DNA of 64,000 nt from Vicinamibacterales bacterium (GCA_050183355.1 JBFXBH010000002.1:23288-87287); one strand, 5' to 3'; positions 26,405 to 49,816 are shown, numbered from the stretch's first letter. Translations and numbers: made by a program. The notes: a model not told the origin generated them from the sequence alone.

Positions 26405-28097
<1,693 letters not shown>

Positions 28098-29107: not shown

Positions 29108-29163
29108 GGGTGCTTCCCTTGTAGCAGGTGTGCGGGCGATCCGCACGCGCAAGCGGTGGATAG

Positions 29164-29179
29164 TGTGAGGTTGCTCACA
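29164..29179. promoter_or_regulatory. perfect CRP-type palindrome TGTGA-N6-TCACA (site 1)
   Basis: TGTGAggttgcTCACA. It lies between the divergent tlpA-like start (29107) and the thioredoxin-like/crp operon start (29213). Confidence 0.6.
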
Positions 29180-29212
29180 GCGGTCGGGCGCGATGCCGCG
29201 TATCTTCGATCG

Positions 29213-29476: not shown

Positions 29477-29500
29477 CGGACACGCTTCTATACTTCCCAC

Positions 29501-30187
29501 ATGGCAGCCCACACCAAGCTCTGGTACCTTGAGCGGTTCCGCATGCTCGATGTCGTGCCGGCTCATCAGCGGCAGGTCGTCGAGAAGATGACGCGGATGC
29601 TCGAGGTCAAGCGTGGCCAGCGGATCTATATCCACGGCGACCCCAGTGACCAGGTATTCCTCCTGAAGGCCGGTGTCGTGAAGATCGCCCGGCTGGGTCC
29701 GCGGCAGCAGGAAACGATTCTGGCGTTTCTCTATCCCGGGGATGTCTTCGGCGAGCTTGCGATCGTGGATCAGAGCCCGCGCGATCACGTGGCCGAGGCG
29801 CACGAGGACACCGTGCTCTGCGCGCTCAGCCGCGATCTGGTGATCCGCATTGCGCAGGAGGCGCCGGCGCTCGGCTATCACATCACCAAGGTCATGGGTC
29901 AGCGGGTGAAGCGGCTCGAGACTCGCTTGAGTGAGCTGCTCGGCAAGGGTGCCGCCGCTCGGGTGGCCCACACGCTCGTCGAGTTGGCGGAGGCCTACGG
30001 CGTACCGGACGCCGCCGGCGTGCTGGTCCCGCTTCGGCTGAGTCAGTCGGATATCGGGAATCTGGTGGGGCTGACACGCGAGACAGTGAACATCGTGCTG
30101 CAGGACTTCCGTCAGCGCGGTCTCGTGCTCGCCGAGCGGCGGGCCATCAGGATTGCCGACATGGCAGGTCTCCGCGCGGTCTCGTAG
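29501..30187 (+). CDS. Crp/Fnr-family transcriptional regulator
   Basis: 228 aa. cNMP-binding-like beta-roll (VFLLKAGVVKI...GDVFGELA) and a C-terminal HTH with LTRETVNIVL (RETV as in E. coli CRP recognition helix). Confidence 0.9.
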   Translation: MAAHTKLWYLERFRMLDVVPAHQRQVVEKMTRMLEVKRGQRIYIHGDPSDQVFLLKAGVVKIARLGPRQQETILAFLYPGDVFGELAIVDQSPRDHVAEAHEDTVLCALSRDLVIRIAQEAPALGYHITKVMGQRVKRLETRLSELLGKGAAARVAHTLVELAEAYGVPDAAGVLVPLRLSQSDIGNLVGLTRETVNIVLQDFRQRGLVLAERRAIRIADMAGLRAVS

Positions 30188-30228
30188 CGTTCCGCCGGTG
30201 GGGCCGGGCTCCAGAGTGGAAGCGGTTT

Positions 30229-30257
30229 CGTAACGAGTTCGTCCGCTGGCGCACTCA
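30229..30257 (+). promoter_or_regulatory. ECF-type promoter-like motif cGTAAC-N17-CACTCA (copy 4)
   Basis: CGTAAC (30229-30234), 17 nt, CACTCA (30252-30257). It lies 46 nt upstream of the ATG at 30303 and has the same architecture as the copies at 39181, 46495(-) and 46518. Confidence 0.5.
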
Positions 30258-30302
30258 CCTTGGTCGGCCATGTCGGCCGGTTGGGACACAAGGAGACGGC
30301 AG

Positions 30303-30725
30303 ATGGCATCGACACCAACGTTCGGACGAGCAGTGGCTGGTGGGGCCGTGGGCACGGTGGCGATGACCGCCATGATGTACGGCGTCGCGCCGATGATGGG
30401 TCTGAACATGGACATCGCGGCCATGCTCGGCAGCATGCTGGGCGGCAGTTGGCTCGCCGGCATGGCGATGCACGGCCTGCTCGGGGTTGTCGTGTTTCCG
30501 GCCGCGTTCACATTCGGGGTGCGCGGTCTTCTGCCTGGCTCCGAGCTGATGCGCGGGCTGGCCTGGGGCGTCGTCCTCTGGCTGATGGCGCAGGTCGTCG
30601 TGATGCCGATGATGGGCGGAGGGCTGTTCAGCAGCGCGATGGGCGGGATGATGGCCGTCATGGGCTCCCTTGCGGGGCACGTGCTGTACGGAGGCCTGTT
30701 CGGCATGGTTGCCGGCCGACGGTAA
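30303..30725 (+). CDS. Met/Gly-rich small integral membrane protein (hypothetical)
   Basis: AAGGAGA RBS before ATG 30303. 140 aa, about 4 predicted TM helices, 21 Met (15%) including PMMG, GMAMHG, VMPMMGGG and GGMMAVMG clusters. Confidence 0.65.
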   Translation: MASTPTFGRAVAGGAVGTVAMTAMMYGVAPMMGLNMDIAAMLGSMLGGSWLAGMAMHGLLGVVVFPAAFTFGVRGLLPGSELMRGLAWGVVLWLMAQVVVMPMMGGGLFSSAMGGMMAVMGSLAGHVLYGGLFGMVAGRR

Positions 30726-35541: not shown

Positions 35542-36543
35542 TCAGACCACGGCTCCGGAGCAGCCCGACCCGGCGCCCGCCGTGCATCCGAAGCAGTGTC
35601 CACCGGTGGCGACCCGCGCGCCTCTCAGGCCTCCCAGGTCCGAGACGTCCCAGATCGTCGGGCGTCCCTGTGGCGTCGCCGCCATGGGCAGGTCCAGCAT
35701 CTGGTTGAAGTCGCAGTCGTAGAGTCCGCCATCCCAGCTGACACTCACCAGCGACCGGCACATCAGACCGGCGACCGTGGCGGGATTGAAGTGCTGGACG
35801 AGCAGACTCATGTACGCGTCCATCCGGCCCTCGCGTTCGAGCATTCCCGCGAACCGGCGAATCGGCATGTTGGTGATCGTCAGGAGGTGGTGAAAGACGA
35901 TGCCGAAGCGGTCGCCGAGCGCATCGCGATACTGGGCTTCCAACTCGGCCTGCGCGGGCGGCAGTGATGCGCCGAGCGGATTGAAGACCAGATCGAGCCT
36001 GAGCGGAGACTCGGGCTGGCCGTACCCGAGCGCGTTCAACTGCCGCAGGGCCTCGATGCTGGCGTCGAACACGCCGAGGCCACGCTGGCGGTCCACGTTG
36101 TCCAGGGTGTAGCAGGGCAGACTCGCGACGATGTCTACACCCTGCGCTGCCAGGAAGCCGGCGAGGTCCTCCTGGCCCGGCTCACGCAGGATCGTCAGAT
36201 TGCAGCGATCGATGACGCGCAGGCCGCGGGCTCTTGCCGCCAGGACGAGCGGGCGGAAGTGCGCATTCAGTTCGGGCGCGCCACCGGTCAGGTCGACGGT
36301 CCGCAGCCCCGGGTTGGCGTCCAGCAGCTCGATCAGGCGATCGGCCACCTCCGCGCCCAGGGCTTCGGTCCGCTTCGGTCCGGCTTCGACGTGGCAGTGG
36401 TGACACGCTTGATTGCATACGCGTCCCACGTTGATCTGCAGGGTGTCCACGACGCCTCGCGCCAGCGTGGGGACACCGGCCGACTGGAGGGCCGACTCGA
36501 ACGACGGCGCGGTATCGAGGAGGGCCGGTACCATCAGCAGCAC
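35542..36543 (-). CDS. arsS: arsenosugar-biosynthesis-type radical SAM protein ArsS (TIGR04167 radical SAM/Cys-rich family)
   Basis: CNQACHHC (CX3CX2C) and the family-typical C-terminal GGHCFGCTAGAGSGCSG Cys-rich tail. An ATG at 36534 (TGATG overlap with arsM) is an alternative to GTG 36543. Confidence 0.85.
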   Translation of the reverse strand: MLLMVPALLDTAPSFESALQSAGVPTLARGVVDTLQINVGRVCNQACHHCHVEAGPKRTEALGAEVADRLIELLDANPGLRTVDLTGGAPELNAHFRPLVLAARARGLRVIDRCNLTILREPGQEDLAGFLAAQGVDIVASLPCYTLDNVDRQRGLGVFDASIEALRQLNALGYGQPESPLRLDLVFNPLGASLPPAQAELEAQYRDALGDRFGIVFHHLLTITNMPIRRFAGMLEREGRMDAYMSLLVQHFNPATVAGLMCRSLVSVSWDGGLYDCDFNQMLDLPMAATPQGRPTIWDVSDLGGLRGARVATGGHCFGCTAGAGSGCSGAVV

Positions 36544-37709
36544 CCGTCCTCACCGGAGCAGAGCGCGGCGGCGTCTGTCGTGAGGTTGTAGTCCTCGCCC
36601 TTTGTTTCGCGCGGATCGCGCACCAGCGTGCCGCCCGTGCACGGGAACGGCCTGGCGTCGCCCTCCGCGACCGGTACGACCGGGTCGATCAATTCCACGT
36701 GCTCCCGGTACGGCGCCTGGGAGAAGACGTTGAATGTCTTGCGGCACACGGCAGTCCGCACGCCGCGCCGCAGCCGGTGCCCGTCGTCGTCGAGCACTTC
36801 CCGGAACGGGCCCTTGTACACGACCGCGTCCTTGTGGTCGAGACAGGGGCCGTCGCTGTGCTTCCACGCCACGATTGTCATGCTGCGGAACTCGATGCCC
36901 TCCACGGTACGCCATGCGTCGACCGCGCGCGACGCGATTGTCAGGGCGCGAAACCCCGCGCGCTCGAACGCCAGAAGGAACTCATCCTCGCGCAGGGCAC
37001 CGGAGACGCAGCCGGTCCAGAGCTCGGGATCCTGCCGCAGATGGTCGGGCACCGCTTCGTCCGCGACGATGTCCGAGATCACCACCCGCCCGCCGACGCG
37101 CACCACCCGGAACAACTCGTCGAACATGCGCGCCTTCTGGGACGCCTCGACCAGATTGAGCACGCAGTTGGAGATGACCACATCCACGGAGCCGTCGGCG
37201 ATGAGGGGCGTCTGGCGGCGCAGGCGCTCGGCTTCCGCCTCTGCCCGGGAGAAGGCTCCGACGGAGTCCGCCGGGGACGATGCGAGGTAGCGGTCGAAGG
37301 CATCGAGGTCGAGCGCCAGATCCTGGATCCGGGCCCTGGCGAACCGGACGTTCGAGAAGCCGACTGCCGCGGCGACGGTCGGTGCACTCCGGCGGGCGAG
37401 GGCAAGCATTTCCTCGTTCATGTCGACGCCGATGACCGCGCCCTCAGGTCCGACGACCTGACTGGCGATGAAACAGACCTTGCCTCCGCCTGAACCCAGA
37501 TCCAGGACCCTCTCGCCCGGCTGGAGATACCGGCTGGGGTCGCCGCAGCCGTAGTCCCGTTCCAGGACCTCCTCCGGAATCGCCCTCAGGAGGGCCGGAT
37601 CGTAGGACACGGGGCAGCACAGCGCGGCCTCCCTCGCCTGGGCGGCAGCGCCGTATCGTTCGCTCACCGCGTGTTCAACGCTCAAGTTGCTGAGGGCGCG
37701 CACTGACAT
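36534..37709 (-). CDS. arsM: arsenite S-adenosylmethionine methyltransferase ArsM-like
   Basis: Start at the internal Met MSVRAL. CCPVSYD...YGCGDP, SAM motif VLDLGSGGGK, TGCVSGAL, plus a Cys-rich C-terminal domain ending in GCC. Confidence 0.85.
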   Translation of the reverse strand: MSVRALSNLSVEHAVSERYGAAAQAREAALCCPVSYDPALLRAIPEEVLERDYGCGDPSRYLQPGERVLDLGSGGGKVCFIASQVVGPEGAVIGVDMNEEMLALARRSAPTVAAAVGFSNVRFARARIQDLALDLDAFDRYLASSPADSVGAFSRAEAEAERLRRQTPLIADGSVDVVISNCVLNLVEASQKARMFDELFRVVRVGGRVVISDIVADEAVPDHLRQDPELWTGCVSGALREDEFLLAFERAGFRALTIASRAVDAWRTVEGIEFRSMTIVAWKHSDGPCLDHKDAVVYKGPFREVLDDDGHRLRRGVRTAVCRKTFNVFSQAPYREHVELIDPVVPVAEGDARPFPCTGGTLVRDPRETKGEDYNLTTDAAALCSGEDGCC

Positions 37710-37854
37710 CCGTGTGACTCCTGGGTTGGGCCGGTAATGACCCAAGGGCGGCGGGCAGCCGGGATACCGCCACCTACCGGGTATGGGTGTGCTGGCAGCG
37801 CCGGACATTACAGACTCGCGTTCAGGACACGCCGGCGGGGCTTCTTCGCGAAGC

Positions 37855-39180: not shown

Positions 39181-39209
39181 TGTAACGATCGGGCCACCTC
39201 CGGCACTCA
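39181..39209 (+). promoter_or_regulatory. ECF-type promoter-like motif TGTAAC-N17-CACTCA (copy 3)
   Basis: TGTAAC (39181-39186), 17 nt, CACTCA (39204-39209). Upstream of a 32-codon ORF (39276) and the histidine kinase (39418). Confidence 0.55.
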
Positions 39210-39275
39210 CCCGGTGACGGAACGTTAGCTGTGTCCGCTCCTCGGGCCAGGTGCAGCGAACCCGGAGGAATGCTG

Positions 39276-39374
39276 ATGCAGCCGCTCGCCGACGTCGATC
39301 AGATCGACCACGCACCTGAGGAGTCGAAGGAGCCAGGCGAAGGCCGGGCTGAAGAGTGGGCTCCGGTCAGGTAA
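39276..39374 (+). CDS. candidate small acidic protein (32 aa), unverified
   Basis: ATG preceded by GGAGG (39264-39268, 7-nt spacing). MQPLADVDQIDHAPEESKEPGEGRAEEWAPVR*. It sits between the promoter-like motif and the kinase gene. It is below the track length cut-off and I have no homology evidence. Confidence 0.25.
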   Translation: MQPLADVDQIDHAPEESKEPGEGRAEEWAPVR

Positions 39375-39417
39375 TAGCACCGTCGAGCCGCCGGCGCGGC
39401 AGAGAGGGGAAGAGTGG

Positions 39418-40872
39418 ATGCAGCCGTGGGCATGGGGACTCCTGAACGTGCTCGTCTGGTCGGTCGGCCTGAAGGCTGTGTACGACCTGCGGCGTGAGCA
39501 CGCGGCTGGTTCGCGCGCCTGGACGCTTCTGACGTGGGCGCTCTGGTGCTGCCTGGCGATGGAGGCAGCCATGCTGCTGTCTCCGTCGATTCCGGGTCTG
39601 GCCCTTGTCTCGGTCGTGACAGGAATGCTCTCCGCGGGTCTCGCGGCCGGCGGCATGATGACCCTGGTGTCCGACGTGAGGACGGGAACGGATGCGGTCG
39701 GCGGGCCTCGTGTCGGGATTCTGGGCGGGCTACTCGCCGCGGCGCTGGCCGGATCCGTTGCGGTATCGGTTGTGGCGTCAGACACGGCCGTGCGCATATC
39801 CGGCGCCCTGCACTATCTGGAGGGCGCCCTCTGGCTGGCATCGTCGGCCATGCTGGTCACCGCGCTCCTGGCCAGCCACGAGACCACGGAGAGGCAACTG
39901 CTCAGGCCGCGGCAGTTCGCGGCGGCCTTTGCGATCGCGTTTCTCGGACCCGCCACGTCCATGCTGGCCTGGCTGGTCGGCACCACGGTGCCTCGGGAGG
40001 TGACGGCGCTGCTGAGCACGTTGTTCGTGCTGACGCTCGTATCGGCACTGTACGCCATGGTCATACGCGTGCGGAGCCGCGGCCTGGCGGCCGCGACGGC
40101 CCAGGTTCACGCCTACGAGCACCAGATCCTGATCGTCGAGAAACTCGCAGCGGTCAGCACCCTGGCGGCCGGTGCGGCGCATGACCTGAACAATGCACTC
40201 GCGGCCATCCACGGTTTCACGGAGTTGCTGCTCGACACGCCGGACCTGGCGCCGTCGGTCCGGCAGGATCTCTTGCAGGTTCGTACGGCGGCCCGGTCCG
40301 CCTCGGCTGTCGCGAAGGATCTGCTGGGCGTTGCCCGAGTGCACGCGGGCGCCGGTGGACCGAGGGGTGTGAAGGACGCAGTGCTGCAGCCGCTGGCGCT
40401 GCTGGAGCGGGAGTTCCAGCGTCGCCGAGTGCAGGTAGTCGCGGACGTGCCGGACGGGCTGCCGGACGTGTCAATGGAGCCGCAGGCACTGAGTGGGGTG
40501 TGCATGAACCTGTACCTCAACGCGCGGGACGCCATGGCCAGTCGCCAGAAGGGCCGGCTCACCCTCACGGTGCGCTCCCACGGCGACGGCGTTACGGTGA
40601 GCGTCGCCGATACGGGAACGGGCATCCCCGCCTCCTTTCGGAGCCGCATCTTTCAGCCGCTGGCGAGTACCAAGGGCGAGCACGGCACCGGCCTCGGATT
40701 GTCGGTATCGCGGCGGCTGGTTGTGGAGGCCGGCGGAGACATCACATTCGTCACCGATGAGGGCGTCGGGACGGAGTTCCGAATCCATCTGCCTGCCGCC
40801 AGCCGCGAGACCTGGCAGCGGAGCGATGGCGAGCCCTTGGACGTAGAGCCGCCGCCCGGACGGGCCGCGTAG
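39418..40872 (+). CDS. membrane-bound sensor histidine kinase (orphan, no adjacent response regulator)
   Basis: About 6 N-terminal TM helices. HisKA H-box (AAGAAHDLNNALAAIHGFTELL) and HATPase N/G boxes (NLYLNARDA, DTGTGIP, GTGLGLS). Confidence 0.9.
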   Translation: MQPWAWGLLNVLVWSVGLKAVYDLRREHAAGSRAWTLLTWALWCCLAMEAAMLLSPSIPGLALVSVVTGMLSAGLAAGGMMTLVSDVRTGTDAVGGPRVGILGGLLAAALAGSVAVSVVASDTAVRISGALHYLEGALWLASSAMLVTALLASHETTERQLLRPRQFAAAFAIAFLGPATSMLAWLVGTTVPREVTALLSTLFVLTLVSALYAMVIRVRSRGLAAATAQVHAYEHQILIVEKLAAVSTLAAGAAHDLNNALAAIHGFTELLLDTPDLAPSVRQDLLQVRTAARSASAVAKDLLGVARVHAGAGGPRGVKDAVLQPLALLEREFQRRRVQVVADVPDGLPDVSMEPQALSGVCMNLYLNARDAMASRQKGRLTLTVRSHGDGVTVSVADTGTGIPASFRSRIFQPLASTKGEHGTGLGLSVSRRLVVEAGGDITFVTDEGVGTEFRIHLPAASRETWQRSDGEPLDVEPPPGRAA

Positions 40873-41169: not shown

Positions 41170-42624
41170 TCACTTGAGCAGAACCGTGTCGGGAAACTGC
41201 GCGTACCAGGCGAACCAGAATGCTCGCTGCGCGGGAACCCGAGGCAGGGCAGGACCGCCCGACTCGGGCACGAGGCCGGACTCGGTGATGATCCACCGGC
41301 GGCCCGACTCGTCACGGAGCACGCGGTCGATGCGCTGCATCGGAGGTGCGATCGCGCCCTCGTACACGCGATTGGCGCCAGCGGAGGTCGTGACGACGAG
41401 GTACCGCCGGCTGCCACGCGAGAAGCTCAACAGCGGATTCCGCTTGAGGAGCCGCACGTCGATGGCGAGCGGCTCGATGGCCCCGGCGGCCGAGGGCAGT
41501 CGCAGCACGAGTACTTCGTCTTTCAGGTTCAGTCGGCGGTCCTCGGCCGGCACCGGAAACAGCAGATCGGGACTGGCGAAGTAGTCCCGGTACGCCGCGC
41601 CTTCGGCGTAGTCGCGGGAGAAGCCCGTGTTAATCGAGAGCACCGTCGTGTCGGGATGCATCTGCCGCCACTCTCGCCACGTCGTCGTGACCACCGCGCG
41701 CATCGGCAGTCGTATGCCGGACCGTGCGAGTGGACCGATCACCGGCGCGCCTTCGATGGCGGACCATAGGGTTCCGGTCTCCTCATCGAACATCAGTTTG
41801 TTCGAGCGGTAGAGCAGGCCGCTGGTGCCGAAATGAAAGTCCGCCGCGCCGACGTGGGTCTCGTACGGAATGACGGTGCCGCAGAGCGTGCAGTACACCA
41901 CCGCAAGGTCGATCTGGCCCAACCGGTCCAGGGCCAGCTCATGCCACGCGAGAATCCGCTTCGGATAGGCACGGGCCACCCCGCCGACTTCGATGCCGAA
42001 GACGATGTCGGAGTCTCGAAGGTAGTTCGCCTCCGGCGCAGTGACCACGGCCGGGTTGCGCAGCGGGGGGATGCCGTTGACCATCACGCCGCCCCAGTCC
42101 ACTTCGTCCAGGCGGATGCGCAGCGCGACGCCGTCGGGAAAGAATCTGGCCATTCGCGGGTCGATGCCGGCGTACAGTTGCCGCTTCAGCGCCACGTGGA
42201 CTGACAGCGATTCGGACGGCAGTGACCACGTCCACTTGCGCCAGCGGACCAGGTCGTCGCCGAGCTTCTGTTTCGTCTGGCGTTCGAGAAACTGAAGGAG
42301 CCGGCGCCGCTCGGGTGAGCCGGGATCGCCGATCTCGGGTAACCCGGCCCCGGCGGACGGCAGCCGAGACCCGGAGGGCATCCCATCGCCGTCGCCGACC
42401 GGTTGAGATCGACGTGGGGGCCGGAACATCCGAGCCATGTCGAGGAGGAGCGCCGCATACCCTGGGCGCCACTGCCGCGCGATCTCCCGCAGGGCCGCCT
42501 CGGCCACGGGCCGTTCCCGGGAGGCGGCTCGGAAGAAGGTGTCGACTGGAACCTCTGCCGTCGCGACCAATGGGACCGTGACGAGAGCCAGAGCGACGAC
42601 GACGCGCACGCCGAATCGGGCCAT
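41170..42624 (-). CDS. DUF3179 domain-containing protein (secreted)
   Basis: Signal peptide. Core motifs VFGIEVGGVARAYP, VVYCTLCGT, SGLLYRSNKLMFDEETGTLW typical of DUF3179. Confidence 0.85.
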   Translation of the reverse strand: MARFGVRVVVALALVTVPLVATAEVPVDTFFRAASRERPVAEAALREIARQWRPGYAALLLDMARMFRPPRRSQPVGDGDGMPSGSRLPSAGAGLPEIGDPGSPERRRLLQFLERQTKQKLGDDLVRWRKWTWSLPSESLSVHVALKRQLYAGIDPRMARFFPDGVALRIRLDEVDWGGVMVNGIPPLRNPAVVTAPEANYLRDSDIVFGIEVGGVARAYPKRILAWHELALDRLGQIDLAVVYCTLCGTVIPYETHVGAADFHFGTSGLLYRSNKLMFDEETGTLWSAIEGAPVIGPLARSGIRLPMRAVVTTTWREWRQMHPDTTVLSINTGFSRDYAEGAAYRDYFASPDLLFPVPAEDRRLNLKDEVLVLRLPSAAGAIEPLAIDVRLLKRNPLLSFSRGSRRYLVVTTSAGANRVYEGAIAPPMQRIDRVLRDESGRRWIITESGLVPESGGPALPRVPAQRAFWFAWYAQFPDTVLLK

Positions 42625-42681
42625 CTCGACCTCCCTACGCCAGGCGGGAAGACTTCCGTTGCCGGGACCTCACCCTGGTCG

Positions 42682-43074
42682 TCAGGCCGAGAGTGCGGCG
42701 TCCGCCGCCTCGACATGCGCCGCGACTGCCCGCCGCGCGGCTTCGCCGGTGATCCGGAAGTGCGAGGCCGTCCAGCGGGCTCGGCCGTCGCCGACGAGCA
42801 GCAACTGCGGCGACTCGTGCCGGACACCCAGCCGTTCCGCGACGGCACTCGATGCTGCACGGCCTGTCTGAACGCTGATGACGTAGAGCGGGACGGGGAG
42901 GCTGCCGCGAGCCTCGGACAACTCGTCCCAGGCCTGCGCGCTGATCCCGCACGTCTCGCTGTGCTTGAACAGCAGGATGGGCCCGGTCCGTGACGCAGCC
43001 AGGGCGGCGTCGACGTCTTCCGGCGTCGTCAGTTCAGGGGCGTGGCGCATGGGGTCGGTCTGGTGTACGGGCAT
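42682..43074 (-). CDS. ytxJ: YtxJ-like monothiol thioredoxin-fold protein (DUF2847, bacillithiol-system type)
   Basis: GGAG RBS before the internal Met 43074. ILLFKHSETCGIS (TCxxS monothiol motif) and ESPQLLLV as in YtxJ. The track start 43128 adds 18 aa. Confidence 0.7.
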   Translation of the reverse strand: MPVHQTDPMRHAPELTTPEDVDAALAASRTGPILLFKHSETCGISAQAWDELSEARGSLPVPLYVISVQTGRAASSAVAERLGVRHESPQLLLVGDGRARWTASHFRITGEAARRAVAAHVEAADAALSA

Positions 43075-43162
43075 GGGTGCTCCAGAGGGATCGCTGCCAG
43101 GTGATCGTGTCAACCGATCGTGACGCATCCGCGCCGGGCACGGCGGCGCGAAGCGCGGGAAC

Positions 43163-43178
43163 TGTGAGATGCGTCACA
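43163..43178. promoter_or_regulatory. perfect CRP-type palindrome TGTGA-N6-TCACA (site 3)
   Basis: cTGTGAgatgcgTCACAa, between divergent ytxJ (start 43074) and the second CMD-family gene (start 43287 or 43251). Confidence 0.6.
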
Positions 43179-43286
43179 ACAATCATTGGCGCCCCGCGGC
43201 GATGATGCCGTCCGGATCGCGTCGGTCATGGGCAGTGACGCACTGCCGGGGTGACCGTGAACAGGAACCAGAACCGAGGGAATGAC

Positions 43287-43856
43287 ATGGCCGAAGCCGA
43301 ATTCACGATGTCCCTGCCTGCCCGAACCGAGAATGATGCCGACCCGGCCGTTGCGGACGTGCTGCGTGCCGCGAGGGCGGCCATGGGCATGATTCCGAAC
43401 ATGTACGCGAACATGGCGAATGTGCCCGGTCTGCTGCAGACCTACCGGACGGGCTACGACGCCTTCCGCTCGGATTCCGACCTGACGCCGGTCGAGCAGG
43501 AAGTCGTCTTTCTGACGATCAGCCGGCTGAACGGCTGTCGGTACTGTGTGGCGGCGCACAGCGCCGTGGCCGACATGTCCCAGGTACCAGAGGCGGTGAC
43601 CGCCGATCTTCGAGCCGGTACGCCCCTGGCCGATGCGAAGCTCCAGGCTCTGACGAGGTTCACGACAACGATGGTGGAGAGCCGTGGGCTGCCGACAAGG
43701 GCTGATGCGACCGCGTTTATCGATGCGGGCTATACCGAGCGCCACATGCTGCATGTGCTCCTCGCCATTGCTGTCAAGACCATCTCGAACTACAGCAATC
43801 ATCTCTTTCACACCCCACTGGACGCGGTGTTCGCGCACCGCGTCTGGGAGGACTAG
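43287..43856 (+). CDS. carboxymuconolactone decarboxylase (AhpD-like) family protein, paralog 2
   Basis: GAGGGA RBS before ATG 43287 (GTG 43251 is also possible). NGCRYCVAAH CxxC motif. Collinear with the 37953 paralog (…IKTLSNYVNH / …VKTISNYSNH). Confidence 0.8.
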   Translation: MAEAEFTMSLPARTENDADPAVADVLRAARAAMGMIPNMYANMANVPGLLQTYRTGYDAFRSDSDLTPVEQEVVFLTISRLNGCRYCVAAHSAVADMSQVPEAVTADLRAGTPLADAKLQALTRFTTTMVESRGLPTRADATAFIDAGYTERHMLHVLLAIAVKTISNYSNHLFHTPLDAVFAHRVWED

Positions 43857-43877
43857 GTCCAGCGGCGTTCGCTCTGG

Positions 43878-43903
43878 CAGCGCGCCCGTTCACGGGCGCG
43901 CTG
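43878..43903. terminator. perfect 11-bp GC hairpin (putative bidirectional terminator)
   Basis: CAGCGCGCCCG-TTCA-CGGGCGCGCTG, 22 nt after the CMD stop and upstream of the convergent DoxX stop. No U-tract. Confidence 0.5.
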
Positions 43904-44028
43904 CTGATGGTCGAACTCCCAGGCGACCGGGTCGCCGAAGCAGCCGCCTCGTGCGGGGCGCCCGAGGCCCCTCGCAATATCGCCAAGCCGGAGCAGGGCG
44001 CGCCGGATCTGGTCGCGGAGGCGTGCCA

Positions 44029-44499
44029 TCAGGCCCTCGACGTGCCGCCGAGCATCCGCGAAAGGACATGGTCCACGGAAACTGCGCCGCCGCCGCGTAC
44101 GAGCAAGGTGACCAGGATGGAGGCCCACACGAGATGATCCGTCCACGCCGCCGGGTAGACAAACGTCTGAATCACGAGCAGCATGCCCAGGAACGGCAGC
44201 GTCGCCAGGCGGGTGCCGAGCCCGACGATGAGCAGCGTTGAGAAGACGAGTTCGTTGAAGGTGGCCATCTGCGCACTCAGCTCTGGCGGCATCAACGGCA
44301 CTTTGTACTCGTCCCGGAAGAGCATCAGGGTCAGTTCCCAGCTCTGGTACTTCAGCAGTCCCGCCTTGAGAAACACGGAGCCGATGGCGACCCGCATCAC
44401 CAGCTGAACGGCGGAGAAGGGGATGGCCTCGAGGCGGGCGAAGACGTTCGAGACAAGCCGTGCGGCAGGCGACGGCATGGCAATGGCGGCAGTGGTCAT
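44029..44499 (-). CDS. DoxX-family membrane protein (last gene of the bufferin-type operon)
   Basis: 156 aa, 4 TM helices, RVAIGSVFLKAGLLK DoxX pattern. ATGA overlap with the DUF2063 gene. Confidence 0.85.
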   Translation of the reverse strand: MTTAAIAMPSPAARLVSNVFARLEAIPFSAVQLVMRVAIGSVFLKAGLLKYQSWELTLMLFRDEYKVPLMPPELSAQMATFNELVFSTLLIVGLGTRLATLPFLGMLLVIQTFVYPAAWTDHLVWASILVTLLVRGGGAVSVDHVLSRMLGGTSRA

Positions 44500-45272
44500 C
44501 GGTGCGCTCCTGTGAGTGGCGATACGCCGGTCACCAGACCGTCGTGGAACAGGGCCGCCAGAGCAGGCCCGGGCTGAAAGTCGGGATGTACGACTGCCGC
44601 GGCGGCCGCCGCCTCCAGTGAAAGACCACGCTGGACGCCCTGACGGAACGCGAACGCACCGGGCGCCAGTCGCGTGAACCAGACGCGGCCGCGATCACCG
44701 CGCGCTTCGATCCAGACGGGTTCGTCTTCAAGCGGCGCGCCGCCCTCCTCCCGTCCGGAGAGGAACCGGGTCATGAGCGTGTCGATTGGCGACCGCGCGG
44801 TCCCGTACCACGTCGCGGGCTGCAGCGTGAGGCTGCAGCCAGGCAGCGCGTCGCCCAGCGCCTGCACCGCCTCCACCGGAAGAGCCGGTGCGGAGACGCC
44901 CACGGCCAGGCGTCCGAGATGCCAGTCGAACTCGGCGAAGACCCTGGCGGGGATGCCCGGCCGGGGTTCGGCCATCTCGAGCCATGCGGGAACGCCAGAT
45001 CCGTACTCCGCGATGCAGGGTGCCGCCGGCGGGTGAGCCCGGACGAACGCGCGTGCCGCGCGCTCGAGCGCGGGGGACCCCAGGAGCCAGCCCGTGGCGG
45101 GGAATCGGTTCATGACGGCCTCGACGAGGCTCGTCTCGAAGTGCCGGAGGTAGATGTCGAGCCTGCTGGCCGGATCCCGCTCGTCCGGCCGTTCGAGGAG
45201 CGTCAGGAGCGGCTCTCCGTTGCCGCTGACGACGGCGTCCCGGACGCGGCGCTGGAGGTCAGCGAGCCGCAC
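44496..45272 (-). CDS. bufC: DUF2063 domain-containing protein (BufC/MbnC-like RiPP partner protein)
   Basis: 258 aa. N-terminal LQRRVRDAV...RLDIYLRHFETSLVEAV typical of DUF2063. The GTG start overlaps the DUF692 gene by 14 nt. Confidence 0.8.
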   Translation of the reverse strand: MRLADLQRRVRDAVVSGNGEPLLTLLERPDERDPASRLDIYLRHFETSLVEAVMNRFPATGWLLGSPALERAARAFVRAHPPAAPCIAEYGSGVPAWLEMAEPRPGIPARVFAEFDWHLGRLAVGVSAPALPVEAVQALGDALPGCSLTLQPATWYGTARSPIDTLMTRFLSGREEGGAPLEDEPVWIEARGDRGRVWFTRLAPGAFAFRQGVQRGLSLEAAAAAAVVHPDFQPGPALAALFHDGLVTGVSPLTGAHR

Positions 45273-46131
45273 GGCCGCACCCTTCCGTCAACGCGCGCTG
45301 CGCCCTGTCCGCCTCACGCACCAGCGAGGCCAGCGGTGGCAGGTTCGTGTCACGCTCGATGAGCGTCGGCACGGGACCGAAGAGACGGAGCGCCGTCTCC
45401 AGCAGTCGCCATGGCCCGTCATCGACGTCCCGATCGTGCGTGTCGATGATGACGATGCCGCCGTCTGGTTCGGGCTCGCGCGTGAAGCCGCCGAGGTGCA
45501 GCTCGGCGACGGCGTGCGCCGGCAGGGCCGCCAGGTACGCCTCGGCGCGGTAGCCCATGTTGTGCGCGCTCAGGTAGACGTTGCTGACGTCGCAGAGGAG
45601 CCGGCAACCCGTGCGCGCGACCAGCGCGCTCAGAAACTCCGGCTCCGTCATGTCCGAGCCTGCGAATCCAAGGTAGTTCGCCGGGTTTTCCAGCAGAAAC
45701 GGCCGCCCGAGTGCGTCCTGCACCTCCTGCACGTGCGGCGCGATGACGGCCAGGGCTTCAGCCGTGTACGGCAGCGGCAGCAGGTCGTTGAGGTAGTCCG
45801 CCCCGTGCGTGGACCACGCGAGGTGCCCTGAGACGAACACCGGGTCCACCTGCTCAGCAAGCTCTTGCAGCCGGACCAGATGCCGGCGATCAAGACCTGA
45901 GGCGCTGCCGACCGACACGCCGACGGTGTGCAGCGCGATCGGATAGTCGCGGCGCAGGTCCAGCAACAGTTCGGTGGCGTGCGGGTTGGCGAGGACGTTC
46001 TCCGGGTGGATTTCGAACCACCCGACGGACGGGCGGGTGGCCACCGCCTCCTGCACATGCGGCAGGCGCAGCCCGATACCGGACCCGAGGGGAGGCGGGA
46101 CGGTGTCGGTCATGGCGGTAGCCACCGGCAT
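45259..46131 (-). CDS. bufB: DUF692 / MNIO (multinuclear non-haem iron oxidative) enzyme, BufB/MbnB-like
   Basis: AGGA RBS before Met 46131. GIGLRLPH...WFEIHPEN...HTVGVSVGS...SGHLAW...FLLENP...LHLGG TIM-barrel motifs of DUF692. Confidence 0.85.
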   Translation of the reverse strand: MPVATAMTDTVPPPLGSGIGLRLPHVQEAVATRPSVGWFEIHPENVLANPHATELLLDLRRDYPIALHTVGVSVGSASGLDRRHLVRLQELAEQVDPVFVSGHLAWSTHGADYLNDLLPLPYTAEALAVIAPHVQEVQDALGRPFLLENPANYLGFAGSDMTEPEFLSALVARTGCRLLCDVSNVYLSAHNMGYRAEAYLAALPAHAVAELHLGGFTREPEPDGGIVIIDTHDRDVDDGPWRLLETALRLFGPVPTLIERDTNLPPLASLVREADRAQRALTEGCGRAAR

Positions 46132-46139
46132 CGGCGTTC

Positions 46140-46403
46140 CTACTTGGCGGCCTTGGACGCGCCGACGAGGCGGTCGCAGTAGCCCTCGGGCACGAACACC
46201 CACGCCTTCTTGTCCCCGTCCTTCTTCGACATGCCGGCGCAGGAGTTGTTGCCCTGGGACGCACAGTCGTTCTTGCCGGCCTTGGCGATGCCGTAGCACT
46301 TCTCGGCTTTGAACGAGGGCATGGCGGCCGGCTGGGCGGAGAGGATGGCGGGGGCGGCGAGCGAGACAGCAAACGCGGAGGCGAGCAGAGCACGTGAGGT
46401 CAT
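46140..46403 (-). CDS. bufA: DUF2282 signal-peptide-bearing precursor (BufA-type bufferin precursor)
   Basis: 87 aa. Sec signal peptide, then EKCYGIAKAGKNDCASQGNNSCAG...WVFVPEGYCDRL with the four conserved Cys of DUF2282. Confidence 0.85.
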   Translation of the reverse strand: MTSRALLASAFAVSLAAPAILSAQPAAMPSFKAEKCYGIAKAGKNDCASQGNNSCAGMSKKDGDKKAWVFVPEGYCDRLVGASKAAK

Positions 46404-46466
46404 GATGAGAAGTCTCCCGGGGCCCGGGGTCCGGGTTCATCCCGGCCTGACCGGCCCACGCTGGAG

Positions 46467-46495
46467 TGAGTGCGGAAGGCGCGCCGGATGTTACA
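46467..46495 (-). promoter_or_regulatory. ECF-type promoter-like motif TGTAAC-N17-CACTCA (copy 2, drives bufA operon)
   Basis: Minus strand: TGTAAC (46495-46490), 17 nt, CACTCA (46472-46467). 64 nt upstream of the bufA ATG. Confidence 0.6.
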
Positions 46496-46517
46496 GGCGG
46501 CCCCGTGCCGGGGCTGC

Positions 46518-46546
46518 TGTAACGTCGCGCGGCCGGACAGCACTCA
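46518..46546 (+). promoter_or_regulatory. ECF-type promoter-like motif TGTAAC-N17-CACTCA (copy 1, autoregulatory)
   Basis: TGTAAC (46518-46523), 17 nt, CACTCA (46541-46546). 50 nt upstream of the sigma-factor GTG. Confidence 0.6.
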
Positions 46547-46595
46547 TGATCGCGAGACCGTCAGGACTTCTGCGGTGGCCGCGTAGAATAGCGCG

Positions 46596-47174
46596 GTGGC
46601 TGTTCGACCGGATCTGGAGAAGCTGAAGAACCGCGATGCGGACGCGTTGCGCGAGGTCGTGGACCAGCACGCGCGACGGCTGTACCGGACCGCGCGGGCG
46701 CTCGGGTGCAGCGCGGCGGTGGCCGAGGACGTGACGCAGGACGTGTTCGTGACGTTTCTGGAAGCGCTGGACCGCTTCGAAGGGCGATCGTCGCTGAGCA
46801 CGTGGCTGATCGGCATCCTGCGGCACAAGGTGTTCGAGCGGCGCCGTGCGGCTCTGCGCGATGATCGGCACGACCCGATTGACGAGGTGTTCGAAGCGCA
46901 GTTCGATCGGGCGGGCCACTGGACGCCCGAGGCGTCACCAGCCGATCGGCAGTTGGAGGCTCTGCAGTCCGCTGAAGCCGTGACGGCCTGCATGGCGGCG
47001 TTGCCGGATCGACTGCGCGAGGTGTTTCACCTGAGGCAGGTGGAAGATCTCTCTGCCGAAGAGGTCGGCCGCATGGTGGGATGCACGCCGGGACATGTGG
47101 GCGTGCTCCTGCATCGGGCCCGGACGCGGCTGCGGACGTGCCTGAAGGAGAAGGGATGGGGGCCAAGGCTATGA
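46596..47174 (+). CDS. ECF-family RNA polymerase sigma-70 factor
   Basis: 192 aa. Region 2 (AEDVTQDVFVTFLEALDRFEGRSSLSTWLIGILRHKV) and region 4 (LPDRLREVFHLRQVEDLSAEEVGRMVGCTPGHVGVLLHRAR). GTG start. Confidence 0.9.
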   Translation: MAVRPDLEKLKNRDADALREVVDQHARRLYRTARALGCSAAVAEDVTQDVFVTFLEALDRFEGRSSLSTWLIGILRHKVFERRRAALRDDRHDPIDEVFEAQFDRAGHWTPEASPADRQLEALQSAEAVTACMAALPDRLREVFHLRQVEDLSAEEVGRMVGCTPGHVGVLLHRARTRLRTCLKEKGWGPRL

Positions 47175-47404
47175 TGACCTGCAAGGACGTGTCGACGCTC
47201 GTCTCGCTGGGCGATGTCGGTTCGTGGTCCGTGTCCAGGCGTCTTGCGATCCGGCTCCACCTCCTCATGTGCCGGCACTGCCGGGCGTTCGCCCGGCAGG
47301 TCGAGATGTTGACGCACGCGGCGCGCGGCACGGGCGCACGGGTGGGGCAGGAGCCTCCGCCGACGTTTGAGACGGCGATCGTGGATCGGTTGAGGAAAGG
47401 TTGA
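47171..47404 (+). CDS. short soluble zinc-finger (ZAS, HxxxCxxC) anti-sigma factor
   Basis: ATGA overlap with the sigma gene. 77 aa with C4 ... H30-x3-C34-x2-C37 (HLLMCRHC). No hydrophobic segment. Confidence 0.8.
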   Translation: MMTCKDVSTLVSLGDVGSWSVSRRLAIRLHLLMCRHCRAFARQVEMLTHAARGTGARVGQEPPPTFETAIVDRLRKG

Positions 47405-47408
47405 CGAC

Positions 47409-48476
47409 ATGAAGATCCTTCGCTTGCGTGTACGGGCGGCAGTGGCTCTGGCGATTGTGTGTGTCGCAGCGGGCGCGGGGGCGGCGCAGACAGCCGCACC
47501 GTTGCCGGATGTGCGGTCGCTCGGTCCGCAGGTGGGACAGACGGTTCCCTCGATCTCCCTGGCGGATCAGAAGGGCGTGGTGCGCACGCTGCCGTCGCTC
47601 ATGGGACCGAAGGGCCTGATGTTGGTGTTCTCGCGGTCCGCGGACTGGTGCCCCTATTGCAAGACCCAGATGGCGGAACTGCAGACCAAAGCGGAGGACC
47701 TCCGCCGCAACGGGTGGGGGCTGGCAGTCGTGACCTACGACGCGGTCCCCGTCCTGGCGGACTTCGCAGCGAGGAGAGGCATTACCTACCCGCTCCTCTC
47801 CGACCCCGGATCGGAGACCATCAAGCGTTTCGGCATCCTGAACACGACGGTCCCTGCCGAGAACAAGGCGATGTTCGGGATCCCGTTCCCGGGTACGTTC
47901 CTGCTGGATGCGAAAGGCGTTGTCACGAACCGGTTCTTCGAGCCCGCGTATCAGGAGCGGGTCACGGTGGGGAGTGTTCTCGCGCGCCTGGGTAATCGCC
48001 TTGACGTTCCCGTGACGAAGGTCTCCTCGCCGCAGATGAACGTCACGGCGTACGCCACCGACGGTGTCGTGGCGCCGGGGACGAACTTCTCGGTCGTCCT
48101 GGACGTGGAGCCCGGTCCGAAGATGCACGTGTACGCGCCGGGCGTGACGGGCTACAAGCCGATCGCGCTGACCATGCAGCCGACTCCGGGCGTTCAGGTG
48201 AAGGCCGCGCAGTATCCGAAGTCCGAGGAGTACTACTTCGCGCCGCTCAAGGAACGCGTGCAGGTCTACCAGCGGCCGTTCCGCGTGGTGCAGGACCTGG
48301 CGGTCGACGCCTCGACGGCCGGTCAGGCCGCGCTCAAGGGCGTGACCACGCTGATACTGAAGGGCACGCTCGCCTACCAGGCGTGTGACGACCGTGTCTG
48401 CTACACGCCGCAGACCGTTCCCTTGACGTGGACGGTCGAACTGCGCGCACTCGACCGGGATCGGCCGAGGCCCTGA
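47409..48476 (+). CDS. secreted peroxiredoxin (AhpC/TSA/BCP-like) fused to a DsbD-alpha-like domain
   Basis: Signal peptide. Redoxin domain with WCPYC. The C-terminal domain ends in YQACDDRVCYTPQ, resembling the DsbD N-terminal domain YQGCADAGFCYPP. Starts 4 nt after the anti-sigma stop. Confidence 0.8.
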   Translation: MKILRLRVRAAVALAIVCVAAGAGAAQTAAPLPDVRSLGPQVGQTVPSISLADQKGVVRTLPSLMGPKGLMLVFSRSADWCPYCKTQMAELQTKAEDLRRNGWGLAVVTYDAVPVLADFAARRGITYPLLSDPGSETIKRFGILNTTVPAENKAMFGIPFPGTFLLDAKGVVTNRFFEPAYQERVTVGSVLARLGNRLDVPVTKVSSPQMNVTAYATDGVVAPGTNFSVVLDVEPGPKMHVYAPGVTGYKPIALTMQPTPGVQVKAAQYPKSEEYYFAPLKERVQVYQRPFRVVQDLAVDASTAGQAALKGVTTLILKGTLAYQACDDRVCYTPQTVPLTWTVELRALDRDRPRP

Positions 48477-48542
48477 CGCACGCGTTCGTGGCGGTGTTCG
48501 GCGCCCGCGCATCGGCATAGAATGCCGACCGGAGGCACGGAC

Positions 48543-48971
48543 ATGTTCAGCGAGTTCAAGCAGTTCGCGATGCGCGGGAACGTGGTTGATCTCGCGATCG
48601 GCGTGATTATCGGCGGCGCGTTCGGCGCGATCGTCACCAGCTTCGTCGGCGACATCATGATGCCGATTATCGGCGTGCTCACCGGCGGCGTGGACTTCTC
48701 GAATATGTACGTGCTGCTCAGAGAGGGTCCGCAGGCGGGGCCGTACGCCTCACTGGATGCGGCGCGGAAGGCCGGCGCGGTGGCCGTCGCCTACGGCGCG
48801 CTGATCAACACGGTCGTCAACTTCCTGATCGTGGCCGCCGCGCTGTTCGTGGTCGTCAAGGGCATGAACGCGGCGAAGAAGCAGGAAGCCGCGGCCCCGG
48901 CCGCGCCGCCGGCGCCGCCCGAGGATGTCGTGCTGCTGCGCGAGATCCGGGACCTGCTCGCAAAGCGATAG
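48543..48971 (+). CDS. mscL: large-conductance mechanosensitive channel MscL
   Basis: [44 protein letters not shown] is near-consensus MscL. GGAGG RBS before ATG 48543. Confidence 0.92.
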
Positions 48972-49000
48972 CCACACCCGCGCGCCGCCGCGAACGTGCC

Positions 49001-49202
49001 CCGTCCCGCCGGGGTGCCATGGTCGCCGCGGGGGCTCCGGTTCCGCAGACCGGAAAAGCGACGCTCCGGCTTAACGTCCCGTGCAAGGCGTGGGGGCCCC
49101 CATCCCCACGCGTGTCAGTGGCCTGCGCGTCACTTTTCGTGCCTTCATGACGGTCTGCTCCACAGTCGCCCCCGCAGCGACCATGGCACCCCGGCGGGAC
49201 GG
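49001..49202. repeat. roughly 200-bp nested imperfect palindrome (34-bp outer arms, 33/34 match)
   Basis: 49001-49034 is the reverse complement of 49169-49202 with 1 mismatch. Inner complementary blocks are GCAGACCG, GAAAAGCGACGC/GCGTCACTTTTC and GCGTGGGG/CCCCACGC. The apex is GGGGGCCCCC (49092-49101). Confidence 0.75.
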
Positions 49203-49231
49203 CCCGTGGCCGCTCGTCGAGCGGCGGATCG

Positions 49232-49816
49232 TCAGCCGGCGGCGTCGGCGGCGATCGCGCGGCGCGTGTCTTCGCCGAGCACGGCCTGGGCCTGATAGGC
49301 CGGGTGGTCCACGATCAGGCGCACCACGGTGCCGTCGGTGGCGAGCAGGCCGACCTGGGTCGGCGTCAGCGCGAACTTCACGTACTGGACGGAGGACACG
49401 GCCCGTTCGTCGATCTGCCCGCGGTCGAACGTGGCCAGCACGCGCGGCGTGTCGCCCACCTGCAGCCACACGTGGCGGTCGAGCCCGACGAAGCGCGGCA
49501 GGGCCAACGCCCGCTCGGCCGGGGTTTCGTACTCGAGCATCAGCGTGGCCGAGAGTTCGCCGGGCCCCGGGATCAGCGGGTTGTAGGCACGGAGTTCGTC
49601 CTCGAGCGCGCCGGGCCGCGACCAACTGTCCTCCGCGCGCAGCATCTCCTGCACCTGGTACCGCATCGTCTCGCGGCTCTCGAAGTGGACGGAGCAGTGC
49701 CAGCCCACGAGCACGCGGCGGCGCGCCTTCTCCAGCATGATGCGCCGGCGGAACTCCGGCCGCGCGGCTTCGTACGCGGCCTTGTCGAGGATGTCGGCCG
49801 GGGTCAGTCGGGTCAT
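49232..49816 (-). CDS. DUF3501 family protein
   Basis: Start at the internal Met MTRLTP (ATGA overlap with the upstream gene). 194 aa; sequence and Fe-S/rubrerythrin neighbourhood are typical of DUF3501. Confidence 0.75.

Follow-up and report, generated by a model that had tools for sequence, protein, structure and literature searches.

A Buf1-type bufferin operon in Vicinamibacterales, probably controlled by a divergent ECF sigma factor and a soluble ZAS anti-sigma factor

Introduction

Bufferins are recently defined and very widespread copper-buffering peptides, and thousands of the clusters that encode them have already been catalogued. To our knowledge, all experimental work on bufferins so far has been on Proteobacteria. 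Here, we describe a gene cluster at positions 44,029 to 46,403 of a 64,000-nucleotide stretch of DNA (the window) from Vicinamibacterales bacterium (GCA_050183355.1, JBFXBH010000002.1:23288-87287), which probably constitutes a functional Buf1-type bufferin (captophorin) operon, bufA1BCD, under the control of a divergently encoded extracytoplasmic function (ECF) sigma factor and a zinc-associated anti-sigma (ZAS) protein. The Acidobacteriota, to which the host belongs, are listed among the hosts of multinuclear nonheme iron-dependent oxidative (MNIO) enzymes in published surveys (PMC11626156), and our literature search found no experimental work on acidobacterial bufferins, as the initial annotation of the window had supposed.

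The buf1 cluster of Caulobacter vibrioides (CCNA_03363-03366, encoding BufA1, BufB1, BufC1, and BufD1) contains the same four genes in the same order as the window. In the Caulobacter product, the central cysteines are converted to thiooxazoles and the outer cysteines to a disulfide, with BufB and BufC being sufficient and DoxX dispensable (PMC11626156, PMC12452194). The 5-thiooxazole has also been confirmed in sister classes (PMC13097082), and it is for Caulobacter Buf1 and Buf2 and these sister classes that copper binding and the thiooxazole are known (PMC11626156, PMC13097082). Bufferins improve the growth of Caulobacter under copper stress, and the characterized thiooxazole peptides all bind copper (PMC11626156, PMC13097082). 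The Caulobacter cluster and the window further share a DUF2282 precursor with four cysteines and a Sec signal (predicted in the window), an ECF sigma factor encoded nearby, and a -35 element, putative in our case, that begins with GTAAC. They differ in their regulators: Caulobacter uses sigmaF with the six-transmembrane NrsF protein and the promoter GTAACC-N16-CGAA (PMC3511200), whereas the window has a 77-residue soluble ZAS protein, a predicted -10 element CACTYA, and no NrsF in its 64 kb. The hosts differ as well (Alphaproteobacteria versus Acidobacteriota), and the window adds linked genes for a TlpA-DsbD-N fusion and a YtxJ/BrxC redoxin.

The regulatory genes of the window find their likeness in Neisseria meningitidis and Neisseria gonorrhoeae, in which the rpoE operon (NMB2140-2145 and NGO1948-1943) encodes sigmaE, its anti-sigma factor MseR, DoxX, the DUF2063 protein NGO1945 (PDB 3DEE), an MNIO enzyme, and the gonophorin precursor. 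Production of the thiooxazole peptide gonophorin has been reported for this locus (PMC13097082). Both systems link a cytoplasmic ZAS anti-sigma factor with a Cys4/His30/Cys34/Cys37 layout to an MNIO/DUF2063/DoxX cluster (PMC2893595, PMC13097082), and this layout has been shown to matter in N. meningitidis MseR (PMC2893595). In a structural model, BufC of the window matches 3DEE by its fold. The meningococcal operon is autoregulated (PMC2893595), whereas autoregulation in the window is a prediction from a promoter motif. The precursor in Neisseria is of an EGKCG-repeat type and that of the window a DUF2282 protein; the sigma and anti-sigma genes lie inside the same operon in Neisseria and are divergent from buf in the window; the Neisseria promoter consensus, GTMAGBWTT ... 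CGTCTAAH with a 12- to 13-nt spacer, is unlike the TGTAAY-N17-CACTYA motif of the window; and the Neisseria regulon includes msrAB.

Two further systems share parts of this architecture. In Haemophilus influenzae, the MNIO enzyme and DUF2063-type partner of the HvfABC (oxazolin) system install 5-thiooxazoles on a secreted copper-binding protein whose precursor class is unlike that of the window. The same organism has a 67-residue cytoplasmic ZAS anti-sigma factor, HrsE, acting on the ECF sigma factor RpoE2, an arrangement also predicted for the window; the RpoE2 targets tested are msrAB, dmt, and rpoE2 itself (PMC7907618). In the methanobactin system (MbnABC), as by homology in the window, an MNIO enzyme and its partner oxidize cysteines of a ribosomal peptide to a copper-binding heterocycle, but methanobactin differs in being a chalkophore for the acquisition of copper; it carries oxazolone/thioamide groups, is made with a leader peptide, and has an export system of its own.

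Results and Discussion

Identity of the buf operon

The cluster consists of four genes:

46140..46403, minus strand: bufA1, DUF2282 bufferin precursor, 87 aa
45259..46131, minus strand: bufB, MNIO/DUF692 bufferin maturase, 290 aa
44496..45272, minus strand: bufC, DUF2063 partner protein with a C-terminal domain resembling a RiPP recognition element (RRE), 258 aa
44029..44499, minus strand: bufD, DoxX-family membrane protein, 156 aa

All four were found where the initial annotation had placed them, with the junctions that it described: bufA is separated from the MNIO gene by 8 nt, the MNIO and DUF2063 genes share 14 nt, and the DUF2063 and DoxX genes share 4 nt (ATGA). By sequence, the four genes are translationally coupled, and their G+C content at third codon positions (0.82-0.92) shows the composition bias of real genes. 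The family names also held up in profile searches, all four above the Pfam curated cutoffs: DUF2282 (PF10048) covers residues 34-81 of BufA (E 2.4e-21, 75.9 bits versus a cutoff of 22.4), MbnB_TglH_ChrH (PF05114) matches BufB (E 2.2e-92), DUF2063 (PF09836) covers residues 6-98 of BufC (E 7.7e-15), and DoxX (PF07681) matches BufD (E 1.6e-13, 51.5 bits versus a cutoff of 23.6), which in addition weakly matches NCBIfam HvfX (48.7 bits, below the cutoff of 80). The accession PF09926, which had been offered for DUF2282 and flagged for verification, was wrong; the correct entry, PF10048, carries the label "BufA1" in the collection's precomputed matches.

An acidobacterial host, as had been proposed from the sequence, agrees with the source of the window in a Vicinamibacterales metagenome-assembled genome (MAG), from an uncultured soil bacterium, and with the nearest named MNIO homologues, which come from Vicinamibacterales, Luteitalea, and other Acidobacteria. 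The 77-residue anti-sigma factor and the DUF2063 protein are 100% identical over their full length to proteins of the Vicinamibacterales MAG GCA_050248235.1, in which contig JBFWST010000009.1 has the same gene order as the window.

The precursor, BufA (MTSRALLASAFAVSLAAPAILSAQPAAMPSFKAEKCYGIAKAGKNDCASQGNNSCAGMSKKDGDKKAWVFVPEGYCDRLVGASKAAK), contains four cysteines, CysI (C36), CysII (C47), CysIII (C55), and CysIV (C76), in the KCYG, NDC, NSCAG, and GYC contexts, respectively, that had been noted in the initial annotation. Among 78 homologues encoded directly upstream of MNIO genes, C36, C47, and C55 are each kept in all 78 and C76 in 76, and 75 of the 78 have exactly four cysteines. The N-terminus is basic (Arg4) and is followed by a 19-residue hydrophobic stretch (maximum Kyte-Doolittle 19-residue mean of 1.95) and an Ala-rich c-region, a layout that fits the n/h/c pattern of a Sec signal peptide by heuristic criteria. 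Cleavage would probably occur near Ala23/Gln24, the site being uncertain between A19 and A23. A PDB sequence search with BufA returned no usable match.

BufB passes the NCBIfam equivalog model NF050167 (MNIO_BufB, "MNIO family bufferin maturase") with 326.6 bits against a cutoff of 310. With the models of other MNIO types, BufB scored 200.7 bits against the HvfB cutoff of 360, 65.6 bits against the MbnB cutoff of 325, and far below the respective cutoffs of the ApyH and ChrH models. The NCBI version of the protein begins at a later ATG and has 284 residues rather than 290. In an alignment of 15 homologues, H42, H68, H103, E148, D181, N184, H212, D230, H232, and E259 are invariant, and we take the order and spacing of these His, Glu, Asp, and Asn residues to be those of the MNIO metal ligands of MbnB. 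N184, D230, and H232 align with N175, D241, and H243 of PDB 3BWW in a HMMER alignment and are thus the likely counterparts of the HvfB site-3 residues N175, D242, and H244, which are essential (bioRxiv 10.64898/2026.07.17.739211).

A PDB sequence search with BufC gave no usable match, and its placement therefore came from a fold search. The AlphaFold2 model, built from a 56-sequence alignment (pLDDT of 90.2), has a C-terminal beta/alpha domain. The top Foldseek matches in the PDB were TglI (8HCI_A, E 2.7e-5) and NGO1945 (3DEE, E 2e-4), and the C-terminal part gave weaker matches to MbnC and to lasso-peptide RRE proteins. Thus, as modeled, BufC folds like the known MNIO partners TglI and NGO1945.

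With a DUF2282 precursor, four conserved cysteines, a BufB-clade MNIO enzyme, a DUF2063/RRE partner with the fold of MNIO partners, and a DoxX gene that closes the operon, as it often but not obligatorily does in such clusters, the evidence supports a canonical Buf1-type biosynthetic gene cluster and upholds the bufferin-type architecture of the initial annotation; all testable defining features are present, with the exception of the signal peptide, which was judged by heuristic pattern. By homology to Caulobacter Buf1, BufB together with BufC would oxidize Cys47 and Cys55 of BufA1 to 5-thiooxazoles in the cytoplasm, after which the precursor would be exported through Sec, its signal peptide removed, and a disulfide formed between Cys36 and Cys76. 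The product of approximately 64 residues would then sequester copper in the periplasm. DoxX may act as an accessory membrane protein, one that is not needed for modification in Caulobacter.

It could be argued that the DUF2282 protein is unmodified here, serving as a plain Cu/Zn-binding or redox cysteine protein while the MNIO pair acts elsewhere or is inactive. Sizeable fractions of Buf1 precursor genes have no adjacent MNIO gene, and unmodified forms may exist (PMC12452194). Against this stand the position of bufA, 8 nt upstream of an MNIO gene whose product passes the BufB equivalog cutoff and keeps the metal-site residues, and the presence of a high-confidence partner protein. Moreover, in a scan with an MNIO profile, which covered one-genome-per-species contigs and yielded 80 loci, a BufA homologue lay directly upstream of the MNIO gene in 78 of the 80, usually followed by DUF2063 and DoxX genes. 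We therefore regard an unmodified precursor as highly improbable and a thiooxazole-bearing product as the preferred reading. The locus offers a clean acidobacterial example of a bufferin cluster and leaves the chemistry and the knowledge of the family unchanged.

Regulatory genes

Divergently from bufA, the opposite strand carries a sigma factor gene and two genes that follow it closely:

46596..47174, plus strand: ECF sigma factor, 192 aa, GTG start
47171..47404, plus strand: soluble ZAS-type anti-sigma factor, 77 aa, with Cys4, His30, Cys34, and Cys37
47409..48476, plus strand: secreted fusion of TlpA/peroxiredoxin-like (WCPYC) and DsbD-N-like (CDDRVC) domains, starting 5 nt past the anti-sigma stop codon

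The sigma factor contains Sigma70_r2 and r4_2 domains, scores above the cutoff of TIGR02937 (sigma70-ECF), and is only 23-32% identical to the sigmaF-type factors of NrsF-linked buf loci. Its stop codon overlaps the ATG of the anti-sigma gene (ATGA, 47171-47174). The anti-sigma factor passes NCBIfam NF052368 (54.9 versus a cutoff of 50), matches Pfam zf-HC2 weakly (E 0.044), and fits the ZAS motif H-x3-C-x2-C with an upstream cysteine (expected 23-26 residues before the histidine); C4, H30, C34, and C37 are invariant among six homologues. Its maximum 19-residue Kyte-Doolittle mean is only 0.73, against 1.8-2.6 for the membrane proteins of the locus, which argues that it has no transmembrane segment. 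We found 708 homologues of 76-97 residues, with no Neisseria protein among the best 120, and orthology between the anti-sigma factors of the window and of Neisseria is unproven. A PDB sequence search with the anti-sigma factor returned no usable match.

Buf1 clusters are usually accompanied by NrsF, a six-transmembrane anti-sigma factor that acts with sigmaF (PMC3511200, PMC12452194) and whose sensing cysteines face the periplasm (PMC3511200). A tblastn search with two NrsF (PF06532) queries detected no homologue anywhere in the 64-kb window, so that the soluble ZAS protein stands in place of a membrane anti-sigma factor, as the initial annotation had recognized. Elsewhere among Acidobacteriota and Gemmatimonadota, sigmaF/NrsF genes lie beside buf in comparison loci L015, L016, L020, L021, L023, L025, and L053 (NrsF in the comparison loci was checked by Pfam in a subset). 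A sigma/ZAS module thus appears to replace the sigmaF/NrsF module found at most sigma-linked Buf1 clusters. The two circuits can evidently coexist, judging from L092 (5718-8456) and L019 (approximately 4200-6600), in which a sigmaF-NrsF-DUF3179 operon adjoins the sigma/ZAS pair; the window retains a DUF3179 gene (41170-42624) without sigmaF or NrsF. The swap is absent from two published bufferin surveys, in which only sigma factors and NrsF appear (PMC12452194), and it has a close precedent in the Neisseria sigmaE/MseR operon.

The ZAS protein, with its MseR/RsrA-like CHCC site, would hold the sigma factor inactive in the cytoplasm. By analogy to RsrA and MseR, it would probably free the sigma factor when its own thiols are oxidized or bound by thiophilic metals (PMC2893595, PMC7907618).

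A shared promoter motif

Scans of the window for TGTAAY-N16-18-CACTYA identified five sites:

46467..46495, minus strand: exact TGTAAC-N17-CACTCA, predicted ECF promoter of buf, 63 nt from its 3′ end to the bufA ATG
46518..46546, plus strand: exact TGTAAC-N17-CACTCA, predicted autoregulatory sigma promoter, 49 nt from its 3′ end to the GTG start
39181..39209, plus strand: third exact copy, upstream of a histidine kinase gene (39418-40872)
37784..37812, minus strand: one mismatch, 74 nt upstream of the ATG of an ArsM-like gene (37709)
30229..30257, plus strand: one mismatch, upstream of a DUF6789 gene (30270/30303-30725)

None of 100 shuffles contained an exact match, of which the window has three; at up to one mismatch, the five sites compare with 0.06 expected, and allowing two mismatches added no site in the window. 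Each of the five copies points at a downstream gene; the distance to the start codon is 45-74 nt for four of them and 208 nt for the one before the histidine kinase gene. When the regions upstream of bufA were aligned for five ZAS-type loci, conserved islands emerged in otherwise diverged DNA, namely TGTAAT/C, then, 17 nt on, GCACTCAC, and then a leader element, GCCGGGATGNNCCCGG.

A scan for the shorter form GTAAY-N16-18-CACTYA across 92 fetched loci placed this motif before bufA wherever the sigma/ZAS pair adjoins buf (the window, L004, L005, L008, L019, L087, L091, and L092). Across all 92 loci it occurred only upstream of bufA, sigma, ArsM-like, or DUF6789 genes or of a gene in L090, always in the correct orientation, and the 1.27 Mb of nonredundant loci contained 15 matches versus approximately 3 in shuffles. 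The sigmaF motif GTAACC-N16-CGAA, experimentally defined in Caulobacter (PMC3511200), precedes bufA in at least 17 other loci, most of them with an NrsF homologue alongside. The window and the scanned ZAS-type loci L004, L005, L008, and L019 lack the sigmaF motif, the sigma/ZAS-type motif is absent from the loci with the sigmaF motif, and the two motifs never co-occur.

In other genomes, the kinase and DUF6789 genes occur together with buf or sigma/ZAS genes, which lends independent support to their membership in a common regulon: L004 carries an orthologue of the kinase (62% identity) within its buf operon, an orthologue of DUF6789 (66% identity) follows doxX in L091 behind its own exact motif, and in L090, which has no buf genes, the sigma/ZAS pair is divergent from a motif-bearing DUF6789 operon. 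From these neighborhoods and from the distribution of the motif by regulator type, we infer that transcription of the buf operon, of a small regulon, and probably of the sigma operon itself depends on this ECF sigma factor. Recognized by the divergently encoded sigma factor, the TGTAAY-N17-CACTYA promoter would drive the buf operon, and promoters of the same type would drive the operon of the sigma, anti-sigma, and TlpA-DsbD-N genes, as well as the histidine kinase, ArsM-like/ArsS, and DUF6789 genes.

Several points weigh against this reading of the locus or limit its reach. The CACTYA block is atypical for the -10 element of an ECF promoter, the position of the buf promoter is itself predicted from the motif, and the sigma-facing copy, with which the bufA copy forms a back-to-back pair in the window and in L004, is absent from the other three ZAS-type loci compared (L005, L008, and L019). 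The ArsM-like copy carries one mismatch; an exact copy occupies the same place in L001, but with 93% identity across the entire intergenic region this footprint carries no information. Since redox sensing is not a property of many ZAS proteins, the mechanism of sigma release is a guess. On the side of the peptide, the signal cleavage site comes from a heuristic pattern and not a dedicated predictor; the modification, export, and copper binding of BufA1, together with the inducing signal, are all argued from homology; and the metal specificity of BufA1 could differ from copper.

The atypical -10 block, the three loci without a sigma-facing copy, and the predicted nature of the promoter would also suit a different explanation, in which the motif serves another regulator as its operator, or another sigma factor as its promoter, while the adjacent sigma/anti-sigma pair controls other genes. 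The separate, palindrome-like element in the bufA leader could likewise be the site of a second regulator. Strict orientation, a two-block structure with fixed spacing, and, except at the histidine kinase, a position within 45-74 nt of start codons argue against an operator, as does the perfect co-occurrence of the motif with the sigma/ZAS pair and its mutual exclusivity with the sigmaF motif across 90 loci. The motif and the pair remain together in L090 even though buf is gone, and no sigma-70-like promoter is detectable in the bufA-sigma intergenic region; scans for sigma-70 promoters and terminators across 42500-49300 gave nothing above chance. Accordingly, we consider control of the motif by another regulator improbable and favor the adjacent ECF sigma factor.

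In the window, the leader element is situated downstream of the predicted promoter and upstream of the ribosome-binding site of bufA:

46431..46445, minus strand: CCGGGATGAACCCGG, a 5-bp inverted repeat containing GATG, which is invariant

Every bufA leader of a ZAS-type locus has kept it, as has the leader in L090. RNAalifold folds it into a 5-pair hairpin, CCGGG-N5-CCCGG, with no covariation, and because there are no compensatory changes, an RNA hairpin, a DNA site, and plain conservation are indistinguishable. An ATG within the hairpin was rejected as a peptide start, since its translations differ between loci and give no conserved peptide.

Taken further, the motif suggests a transfer of the bufferin operon, in Vicinamibacterales and their acidobacterial relatives, out of the periplasm-sensing sigmaF/NrsF system and into a cytoplasmic thiol-switch circuit that co-regulates the TlpA-DsbD-N, DUF6789, kinase, and ArsM-like/ArsS genes, a scenario that we put forward with slightly more doubt than confidence. 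It is the sole part of this analysis that would be new. If it is true, there would be a previously undescribed soft-metal/metalloid stress regulon with its own promoter, TGTAAY-N17-CACTYA, and bufferins would serve beyond copper defense. The motif, the sigma/anti-sigma pair, and the co-regulated genes form a testable regulatory hypothesis, and the association with DUF6789, TlpA-DsbD-N, and ArsM-like/ArsS may hint at roles for DoxX and accessory proteins and at the stresses that induce bufferins in soil bacteria.

Such a circuit bears on the question of what the cluster responds to. The same genes could belong to a regulon for cytoplasmic thiol-reactive stress (As(III), Hg(II), Cd, HOCl, or disulfide stress), with the bufferin serving to buffer a soft metal other than copper or to protect thiols in the periplasm. 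Although unlikely on balance, a broader soft-metal or oxidant trigger is a serious rival to copper because of the cytoplasmic thiol sensor, which is of the RsrA/MseR type and unlike NrsF with its periplasm-facing cysteines (PMC3511200, PMC2893595), and because of the ArsM-like/ArsS operon in the predicted regulon. The immediate neighbors of buf are AhpD-like, YtxJ/BrxC, and TlpA-DsbD-N redox genes, the related RpoE2/HrsE system of H. influenzae responds to HOCl and H2O2 (PMC7907618), and fusions of MerC to bufferins are known (PMC12452194). In favor of copper are the copper binding of every characterized thiooxazole peptide and the benefit of bufferins to Caulobacter under copper stress (PMC11626156, PMC13097082). 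Moreover, none of the oxidants tested induced sigmaE in N. meningitidis (PMC2893595), and the mismatched ArsM-like motif is without independent footprint support. We retain copper sequestration as the preferred reading.

Neighboring genes

The genes flanking buf and the sigma factor are mostly redox genes, and the metal-related genes of the window lie at a greater distance:

48522..48971, plus strand: MscL channel gene (PF01741, E 1.3e-46), 45 nt downstream of the TlpA-DsbD-N gene
42682..43128, minus strand: YtxJ/BrxC-type monothiol redoxin (PF11009, E 1.9e-27; TIGR04019 above cutoff)
19262-22870, plus strand: CusA/CzcA-family resistance-nodulation-division (RND) pump (1068 bits versus a cutoff of 701), encoded together with an adaptor protein and an outer-membrane factor
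25521-28097: merR, merT, and merA
35542-37709: ArsM-like methyltransferase and ArsS, followed by a VTT/DedA gene

The TlpA-DsbD-N fusion matches AhpC-TSA (E 3.8e-23) and DsbD_N (E 2.5e-9), with both cysteine pairs kept in homologues, and its gene accompanies buf at loci with either type of regulator (L004, L005, L015, L053, L019, and L092). The NCBI version of this protein has 314 residues and would lack the signal peptide; the 355-residue version begins 5 nt past the anti-sigma stop codon. No terminator or promoter was detected between this gene and MscL, and the sigma operon may end with MscL, although the membership of MscL is uncertain; beyond it lie genes for a DUF3501 protein, a CCG/Fe-S protein, and a rubrerythrin. 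On the other side, the YtxJ/BrxC gene directly follows doxX in L001 and L004, whereas in the window an AhpD-like CMD gene (43251-43856, plus strand) is inserted between the two. The DUF3179 gene also lies downstream on the doxX side, and no motif copy precedes the YtxJ/BrxC-DUF3179 pair, even at two mismatches.

The initial annotation described the cluster as embedded among copper-efflux, mercury, and arsenic genes. The RND, mer, and ArsM-like/ArsS genes are indeed present; however, they lie 6-27 kb away, the metal of the pump is not assignable, and the immediate neighbors are thiol-redox genes. Assignment of the pump system (19262-25457) to copper was rejected, as it reached the level of the CusA/CzcA family and both the CusB and CzcB models fell below their cutoffs. 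The pump protein carries a C-terminal extension of approximately 170 residues with a subthreshold YtkA-like match (23.4 bits versus 25.9), which may be a fused periplasmic metal-binding domain. ArsS is well supported (TIGR04167, 427 versus a cutoff of 300), and the ArsM-like protein is below all ArsM cutoffs.

The DUF6789 membrane protein (30270-30725, plus strand) is strikingly Met-rich, as in VVMPMMGGGLFSSAMGGMMAVMG. In view of this composition and its repeated linkage to buf/sigma loci elsewhere, the protein is a candidate for a membrane component that handles Cu(I). In L090, a homologous promoter and leader precede, in place of the buf operon, a gene for a 112-residue secreted protein rich in Cys, Met, and His (3941-4279, minus strand; …CGVKHMMPGDAAACTRAC…) and a DUF6789 gene (3482-3925, minus strand); the secreted protein may be an alternative cargo of this regulon for metal binding in the periplasm.

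Two open reading frames were set aside. One of 850 codons (28154-30706, minus strand) overlaps both a CRP-family regulator (29501-30187, plus strand) and DUF6789; only its thioredoxin-like C-terminus (approximately residues 700-845) looks real, and the remainder is an artefact, as long reading frames arise in DNA of 70% GC. The other, of 34 codons (39270-39375, plus strand), lies between the third motif copy and the kinase and has a good ribosome-binding site; it is probably not a gene, because only 32 nt separate brxC and the kinase in L004. Lastly, no motif copy precedes the gene for MsrP, a periplasmic methionine sulfoxide reductase (9732-10688, plus strand; 456 bits versus a cutoff of 207). 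Methionine sulfoxide reductase is a hallmark target of the ZAS-controlled sigma factors of Neisseria and Haemophilus.

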